Below are positions 2,958 to 3,043 of a stretch of 6,313 bases of DNA, piece after piece. The translations under genes and the position numbers were made by a program. Within the stretch, counting starts at the first letter, position 1; every line of letters begins with the position of its first letter. Source of the stretch: a virus (lineage: Duplodnaviria > Heunggongvirae > Uroviricota > Caudoviricetes); IMG/VR virus record IMGVR_UViG_2700989519_000005; one strand, written 5' to 3'. The notes under the pieces are model-generated. The model saw only the letters and a program-made list of their open reading frames with translations. It did no database searches and was not told the DNA's origin.

Positions 2958-3043
2958 AAGCTGTGTGGCGAAGCAACCACTCTTAACAGAATATCCCGTT
3001 TTTTACGTACGTAAAATATTTTCTAGAAAGTCGCCCCTTACCA
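2958..3043 (-). promoter_or_regulatory. Q-to-terminator interval: expected location of late promoter pR' and Q-utilisation site; contains a perfect 16-bp palindrome
   Basis: Position between the Q stop (3044-3046) and the terminator, by analogy with lambda/21/82 late regulatory regions (established knowledge). I could not pick unambiguous -35/-10 hexamers. The palindrome TTTTACGTACGTAAAA is at 3001-3016. Confidence 0.25.

Follow-up and report, generated by a model that had tools for sequence, protein, structure and literature searches.

A perfect 16-bp palindrome in the late-control region of a lambdoid prophage is likely to be the Q-binding element (QBE) of the prophage's late promoter PR', used by an antiterminator of the Q933W/QuuD type. 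The palindrome (TTTTACGTACGTAAAA; 3001-3016, minus strand) lies in a 6,313-nt stretch of the IMG/VR record IMGVR_UViG_2700989519_000005 (Caudoviricetes), the whole of which is called the window here. It sits upstream of a late start site that has been mapped in a homologous prophage, is conserved, and changes together with the recognition helix of the neighboring Q protein. An earlier note on this DNA, made from the sequence alone, had placed the palindrome 28-43 nt past the Q stop and about 45 nt from a terminator, in the interval expected to hold PR' and the Q-utilization site. The sequence agrees with these distances (Q stop codon at 3046..3044; terminator stem starting at 2957, 44 nt beyond the palindrome), and so does the promoter position given below.

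The length of the palindrome is by itself weak evidence, because 171 of 2000 dinucleotide-preserving shuffles of the window (8.6%) contain a perfect palindrome of at least 16 bp and because the window holds a second, non-conserved one (AAGGGATTAATCCCTT at 3316-3331). The latter lies within the Q gene, where it encodes KGLIPS; we rejected it as a related site since relatives encode this peptide with synonymous codons in which the palindrome is lost, and it looks like a codon accident. The surroundings of the main palindrome are A+T-rich, with 10-bp palindromes at 3013-3022 and 3020-3029 overlapping it. Only its inner 14 bp (TTTACGTACGTAAA, 3002-3015) are conserved across relatives, the outermost T/A pair being specific to the allele of the window and to locus L096, and the window contains a single occurrence of TTTACGNNCGTAAA, also with two mismatches allowed. 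It is the comparative evidence, not length, that in our assessment lifts the palindrome above chance.

We positioned PR' by homology to the Stx2 prophage Sp5 of strain Sakai, for which Sy et al. 2020 (PMC7547250) give a start mapped by differential RNA sequencing at 1,266,203 and a 3' end at 1,266,460 in NC_002695.1. Moving the Sakai coordinates by 142 to the current record (NC_002695.2) places this start at position 846 of locus L003, the fifth base (A) of the hexamer TAAGAG and 7 nt after the -10 hexamer TATCAT. By the same shift, the published 3' end (+258) coincides with the final T of a terminator T-run, and the RNase E site GU|AUU given in that study comes to lie exactly at +173. At the end of its Q gene, Sp5 reads TTTACGATCGTAAA-N-TATCAT-GATAAGAG, with GATAAGAGTGGTTAC after the TATCAT and then a hairpin with a T-run; its hexamers TTTACG and TATCAT are 16 nt apart. 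Transferred to the window, the start falls at about 2981, the palindrome at -35..-20, and its axis between -27 and -28. The palindrome is upstream of the PR' start and therefore not in the short late RNA.

The surrounding elements of the window, all on the minus strand, follow the same layout. The predicted -10, TATTCT (2988..2993), is homologous to the TATCAT of Sp5, and a TAnnnT hexamer stands at a fixed position across classes of related promoters, with TA...T conserved 8..3 nt upstream of TAAGAG. The nearly invariant TAAGAG itself (2980..2985) holds the predicted start, the A at 2981. Following the Sp5 geometry, the upstream arm of the palindrome, TTTACG (3010..3015), may serve as a -35 hexamer, matching TTGACA at four of six positions with a 16-nt spacer to the -10. 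A consensus scanner did not call TTTACG-16-TATTCT, and the hexamer at this place is not -35-like in classes B, C and D. In the per-class consensus, an A-tract (AAAAAA; 2999..3004, -23..-18) marks the downstream edge of the palindrome, and it does so in most classes, including those without a T-rich upstream flank.

For a first sample of relatives, viral contigs were scanned for the conserved leader TAAGAGTGGTTNCNTNGNCAC, which yielded at least 120 loci; with previously fetched loci and the window, the sample comprised 121 promoters in 71 distinct versions, selected by the leader only. Over these 121 loci the leader and terminator are nearly uniform, and the -35..-20 segment splits into discrete palindrome classes: TTTACGTACGTAAA in the window and DLP12-like phages, TTTACGATCGTAAA in the Sp5/933W type, and further TTTACAATCGTAAA, GCGTACGC (class B), GCGGTCCGC, ATTCGTTACGAAT, TGTTATAACA and TGGAATTCCA. 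A symmetry scan of eight representatives revealed a single axis, 23-23.5 nt upstream of TAAGAG, at which 35 of 48 pairs are symmetric; other axes mostly gave about 13 of 48, with a maximum of 22-23. Within each class, the palindrome forms an invariant island between stretches of variable DNA, and the per-class consensus contained no other class-specific element between -60 and +50. Recognition sites for SnaBI, BsiWI, PvuI, EcoRI and RsrII occur within class palindromes; we treat them as incidental, because any 6-bp palindrome tends to be a restriction site.

A second sample was retrieved by Q similarity instead of by promoter and comprised 80 loci from GTDB species genomes in more than 15 genera (Escherichia, Shigella, Pantoea, Trabulsiella, Citrobacter, Photorhabdus, Xenorhabdus, Proteus, Providencia, Morganella, Arsenophonus, Yersinia, Serratia, Rahnella, Ewingella and others). 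It added a ninth class, GTAATTAC, paired with a recognition helix of the form SHN-x-V-x-KR, and a tenth type seen at one locus (GCGCTACGC in L200, helix VSEGRIRQQ). Of at least nine different palindromes on this axis, each of about 200 related loci in many enterobacterial genera has one. The earlier note had argued that the promoter alone does not explain the palindrome, and this is borne out by same-axis palindromes that differ among classes and co-vary with the Q helix. It had also named, as evidence to the contrary, loss of the palindrome from otherwise near-identical late regions. All class-A regions examined keep the palindrome; at one class-A locus (L154) the right arm is degenerate, and where the class-A center changes, Q changes too.

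Among leader-bearing sequences, 100 of 124 have a Q gene of family PF06530 upstream within 5 kb, at a Q-to-promoter distance of 5-2461 nt. In the first sample, Q clusters at 65% identity correspond one-to-one with the main palindrome classes, the sole departure being a single class B variant (GCGCACGC) with its own singleton Q cluster. The second sample shows the same pairing of Q and palindrome, even where the leader has diverged beyond recognition. We then tabulated the recognition helix against the palindrome for 102 distinct cases, requiring a TAnnnT hexamer at the right distance, and obtained an almost diagonal matrix. Helices of the form SDG-x-IGK go with a GTAC center in 21 cases (GATC center in one, none found in one), SDT-x-IGK with a GATC center in 19 of 19, and SDCW with an AATC center in both cases. 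The pattern SD(G/S)T(I/V)RK is joined to GCGTACGC in 20 of 20 cases and x-E(K/R)-x-IRI to GCGGTCCGC in 17 (none found in three). Among the rarer helices, SEGK accompanies TTCGTWACGAA three times (none found once), SLNQ accompanies GTTATAAC and SHT-x-VL accompanies GGAATTCC (two of two each), and SHN-x-V-x-K accompanies GTAATTAC in seven of seven. SEGRIRQ, present in L200 only, has its own GCGCTACGC plus a GCGTACGC match, and one helix outside all patterns (L204) has a GCGTACGC match. Palindrome and helix are clearly mispaired at one locus only (L133); a few others lack a detectable site or have an extra match.

Finer switches are seen inside the window's class, where 37 distinct pairs of Q and palindrome center comprise 19 of Gly with GTAC, 16 of Thr with GATC, one of Cys with AATC and one exception. 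A rule by which the second helix residue, Gly or Thr, is matched by TA or AT at the center, respectively, agrees with 36 of 37 distinct pairs. On a neighbor-joining tree of Q built without the recognition helix, helix residue and palindrome center each require at least seven parsimony changes, and these coincide. The clearest comparison is between Xenorhabdus stockiae (L140) and X. bharatensis (L142): their Q proteins are identical at 130 of 139 positions, with G93T among the nine differences, and over the first 84 nt past the Q stop only the two central palindrome bases differ (TA versus AT). Class B shares SDGT with some class A Qs, together with a CGTACG center, whereas later positions of its helix and the base just outside the center are different, a pattern that looks like direct base reading by the helix.

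The residue in question falls where an HTH (helix-turn-helix) protein reads DNA. In the window, 12 codons at 3119..3154 (minus strand) cover the start of the second (recognition) helix of the Q HTH. An AlphaFold model built from a 39-sequence alignment was confident for residues 47-115 only (predicted local distance difference test, pLDDT, 80-91 over 71-110), and a single-sequence model was unusable (pLDDT 45). The former predicts helices at 81-88 and 92-112, which makes Gly93 the second residue of the recognition helix; in this model, the palindrome-coupled residue is positioned where DNA is read. The best Foldseek matches of the model were the -35-binding domains of ECF (extracytoplasmic function) sigma factors, with root-mean-square deviations of 1.2-1.8 A over 59-68 columns, and Q21, the Q protein of phage 21; the E-values are weak (0.01-0.2) though the superpositions are tight. 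The HTH motif (G-M-T-F-M-T-L-A, RKHGC and the 12 residues encoded at 3119..3154) also fits the pattern of ECF sigma region 4.2. A sequence comparison with a 2026 copy of the PDB detected no solved relatives other than the Q21 entries, which are distant (E 3.8e-8). The clade of the window's Q is without the long loop of Q21, and after the first HTH helix there is no sequence alignment between the two; an attempt to align the recognition helix with the DNA-contact residues of Q21 was discarded because the profile alignment stops at that point. That Gly93 corresponds to Ala124 of Q21 is a guess, which we did not use.

Taken together, these comparisons suggest how the site may work. In the absence of Q, host RNA polymerase would start at PR' and stop at the terminator tR', giving an RNA of about 49 nt. 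When Q is present, two protomers, probably in mirror symmetry, would bind the arms TTTACG and CGTAAA, each by a sigma-region-4-like HTH, with the N-terminal ends of the recognition helices pointing to the palindrome center. Q would load from the palindrome onto the polymerase just past the promoter, and the Q-loaded polymerase would read through tR' into the late genes. The upstream arm would double as a weak -35. We infer the physical binding of Q, the two protomers per site, the position of the pause and the read-through from the comparative pattern. In keeping with a QBE, the site lies within PR' upstream of the start and overlaps the spacer between -35 and -10, a Q gene is nearby on the same strand, the terminator and lysis genes follow downstream, and site and Q change together.

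As a QBE, the palindrome would have a known type of function; its inverted-repeat architecture would be a variant of which we found no description. The QBE of phage 21 consists of QBEu (ATTGAGCA) and QBEd (AATGAGCA), bound by Q21 (6P18/6P19/6P1A, 6JNX; PMC6606751), a member of the same family, PF06530. The phage 21 site also lies within the late promoter upstream of the start, and its hexamer half-sites are likewise 8 bp apart. The phage 21 record has, in this order, -35, QBE, -10, start, pause element TAAGCTG, terminator ending at about +50, tRNA genes and S21 holin, and it shares with the window a late promoter followed by such a terminator, tRNA genes and an S21-type holin. The TAAG motif stands at a similar distance from the site center in both, 20.5 nt for phage 21 and 23 nt for the window. 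The phage 21 site occupies -27..-12, whereas that of the window occupies -35..-20 and overlaps a -35-like hexamer. The window departs from the phage-21-type architecture in that its arms are inverted and its Q is without the loop insertion. In phage lambda, Q (PF03589) has its site between the -35 and -10 of PR', loads during early elongation and gives read-through of tR' (PMC9388147). The regulatory logic is thus the same as proposed here, but the lambda Q fold is unrelated, and lambda Q acts as a monomer on a 13-bp asymmetric site.

The Shiga toxin (Stx) phages Sp5, Sp15 and 933W (PMC7547250) have a homologous Q (about 84% identical), a promoter palindrome (TTTACGATCGTAAA) that differs from that of the window only at the center, and a homologous first 50 nt of the leader, including the hairpin and then the T-run. 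Sp5 has a second terminator at +258, and the 3' part of its transcript gives the small RNA StxS; the window has the first terminator only, with no stx genes after it. We found no discussion of the palindrome in the searched parts of PMC7547250.

Proteins with a sigma region 4 or LuxR-NarL-type HTH bind inverted repeats as dimers, as we propose for Q. They are initiation factors or activators, whereas Q is an antiterminator that modifies elongation, and we do not claim family membership. Our literature search returned no description of a QBE for proteins of the Q933W/QuuD type, though there may be an earlier one.

Several points weigh against the palindrome as the site of a symmetric Q pair. 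The start in the window was placed by homology to a different prophage, with a Q of about 84% identity, and the evidence linking Q to the palindrome is comparative throughout. Exact symmetry spans only 8-10 bp in several classes, and in classes B and C the shared A-tract on the downstream side has no mirror image upstream. Q21, the only solved family member, binds a direct repeat with TGAGCA subsites through tandem protomers, whereas the repeat in the window is inverted; Q21 also uses a different, helix-turn-[loop]-helix arrangement with minor-groove contacts, whereas the loop-free Qs of the window's clade have a canonical motif of the sigma-region-4 type. A convincing sigma-dependent pause element could not be placed in the window, where the nearly invariant TAAGAG/AAGAGT at -4..+3 overlaps the start. 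One locus, L133 (Photorhabdus cinerea, about 4420-4440), joins a Gly-type helix (SDGH) to a GATC-centered palindrome. The switch counts come from a tree of a short protein and could be inflated by recombination. Finally, Q and PR' are tightly linked, and class-level pairing could partly reflect co-inheritance; because of this linkage, pairing at that level is insufficient for a claim of function, and the case rests mainly on the fine-scale switches and the Xenorhabdus pair. The repeated fine-scale switches argue against pure linkage. The DNA between Q and palindrome falls into 23 unrelated groups, none common to two classes; we rejected this variety as evidence against linkage, as insertions do not part Q from its promoter.

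Three other explanations were weighed against that of a Q pair on the palindrome. Q might use only the downstream half-site and the A-tract (ACGTAAAAA) as a single protomer, with the upstream arm read by sigma region 4 or by nothing. The asymmetry of the A-tract in classes B and C would fit such a site, lambda Q offers a precedent for a monomer on an asymmetric site (PMC9388147), and the domain with the closest fold, ECF sigma region 4, binds DNA singly. However, upstream and downstream arms change together in every class, even though most upstream arms are unlike a -35, and Q21, the closest characterized relative, uses two protomers. We regard single-protomer binding as very improbable.

The palindrome could instead bind another dimeric protein that represses or tunes PR', such as NinH, a phage regulator or a host factor, with Q recognizing DNA elsewhere. 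A protein over -35..-20 would be well placed for promoter repression, NinH (PF06322) is encoded just upstream of Q, and linkage could make any neighboring gene seem to co-vary; co-variation with the palindrome was assessed for Q, not for NinH. Yet the palindrome co-varies with particular residues of Q itself, at the start of the recognition helix, and does so across genera and very different gene neighborhoods. Q must, moreover, recognize something in PR', where the -60 to +50 interval offers no other class-specific element. A different binder is thus very unlikely, and NinH or host factors, which the earlier note had put forward, are not the best candidates for a palindrome that co-varies residue by residue with the Q helix.

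Equally doubtful, to our judgment, is the view that the palindrome is merely a -35 hexamer with part of the spacer, its symmetry a by-product of A+T-richness with no binder of its own. The four-of-six match of TTTACG at the right 16-nt spacing to TATTCT, the 8.6% of shuffles with an equally long palindrome, the second, non-conserved palindrome of the window and the ease with which flanking A/T runs form palindromes all speak for it. But other classes have same-axis palindromes unlike a -35 (for example, GCGGTCCGC and GCGTACGC), symmetry persists while sequence identity changes, and the central bases co-vary with a Q residue even though they lie in the spacer beside the -35-like hexamer. Of the two possibilities raised in the earlier note, a site for a dimeric protein or an RNA structure, the first survives in that a symmetric protein pair is the best reading of the comparisons. 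An RNA or DNA hairpin is rejected: the palindrome lies upstream of the predicted start and folds with -2.4 kcal/mol (z -0.35), a value equaled or bettered by 65 of 200 shuffles. A search of the interval against Rfam returned no family reaching threshold.

We lean, if only modestly, towards a generalization to a large Q21/PF06530 branch that includes the Q of 933W/Sp5 and QuuD of DLP12. Its members would load from a palindrome at -27.5 that overlaps the -35, as a symmetric, sigma-region-4-like pair. The same generalization holds that the branch has a readable code, in which the second helix residue sets the central bases (TA for Gly, AT for Thr) and other helices specify GCGTACGC, GCGGTCCGC, GTAATTAC and so on, and that at least nine mutually exclusive Q/promoter specificities would coexist among enterobacterial prophages.

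In some loci, units of palindrome and -10 are repeated in tandem, with two or three copies 3' of one Q, as in Serratia grimesii (L194; 4487, 4693 and 4810) and Yersinia aleksiciae (L201; 4398 and 4543). This arrangement suggests several Q-responsive promoters in series. DLP12-like (L001, 52-1134 and 1500-1585) and 4C10-like phages (L131/L132) carry an opposite-strand gene for an outer-membrane porin between Q and promoter; in these phages, PR' and the palindrome stand directly upstream of the holin, at a distance of 1.7-2.9 kb from Q.

Downstream of the start, the predicted 50-nt PR' RNA of the window (2981..2932, minus strand), consisting of a 5' hairpin and a terminator, folds with -23.3 kcal/mol (z -4.5). 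The leader hairpin (2965..2980; +2..+17) has five base pairs, which are 84-97% paired across 64 distinct leaders; pair +5/+14 alternates between G-C (22), A-T (20) and G-T (12). The hairpin is thus kept across genera through compensatory changes, and the flanking TAAGAG and GCTTA are also conserved. The intrinsic terminator tR' (2932..2957, about +25..+49) is predicted from its fold to have the stem AAACCCGCC/GGCGGGUUU and a UCCG loop, followed by a U-run, and would end the PR' RNA at about 49 nt. A consensus pattern scan for promoters and terminators detected neither PR' nor tR', its one result being a promoter-like site ahead of the tRNA genes; our guess is that tR' was missed since its stem takes part of the T-run. 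In Sp5, a hairpin with seven T's at about +27..+50 (L003 870-896; NC_002695.2 about 1,266,369-1,266,395) is homologous to this only terminator of the window. It is the first terminator-like element of Sp5, upstream of the tR' at +258 that ends StxS, and we found no mention of it in the parts of PMC7547250 that we searched. The sequence TACATT occurs at +7..+12 in Sp5 and not in the window. TAAGAG resembles TAAGCTG, the pause element of phage 21, and may correspond to it.

The promoter-like site found by the scan, TTTGCA-18-TATTAT (2854-2883, minus strand), is located 3' of tR' and 5' of the tRNA genes, and it agrees with the observation of a separate promoter for the tRNAs in Sp5 by Sy et al. 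(PMC7547250).

The gene order of the window, on the minus strand, is DnaC-like ATPase, DnaB-like helicase, a small open reading frame, NinH (PF06322), Q, the palindrome (3016..3001), tR', tRNAs and lysis genes. The Q gene (3044..3424) encodes 126 amino acids from MRDIQQ, the RefSeq start, and is assigned by PF06530 (E 5.8e-54) and RefSeq to the Q21/Q933W family; its longest open reading frame starts at 3460, the RefSeq start being 3424. Four tRNA genes with the anticodons CAT, TCT, TGT and TCC (2534..2844, minus strand) lie 3' of tR', the first of which (CAT) is called Met by ARAGORN and Ile by RefSeq. They are followed by an S21-type holin, a 209-aa open reading frame, lysozyme and Rz, the genes that the Q/PR' switch would control. 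The 209-aa open reading frame (1393-2022, minus strand), between holin and lysozyme, has no Pfam match, is hypothetical in RefSeq and may be an accessory gene inserted in the lysis cassette. Nine complete E. coli genomes contain exact copies of the Q-PR' segment, and one Shigella flexneri genome has the identical Q and promoter.

In Stx phages, Q-dependent read-through from PR' switches on Shiga toxin 2 and the lysis genes. The Q of these phages belongs to the clade studied here, for which we found no DNA site in the literature, and our analysis supplies a defined 14-bp candidate with a predicted residue-to-base code (G93T with a TA-to-AT center). The findings are relevant to antitermination and to the regulation of Shiga-toxin phages, and they provide a simple rule for locating PR' in prophages, even with genes inserted between Q and promoter. 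They also suggest that one protein family may have evolved both tandem and mirror-symmetric docking beside RNA polymerase. If the code holds true, it would predict which co-resident prophages trans-activate each other's late genes and which are insulated.

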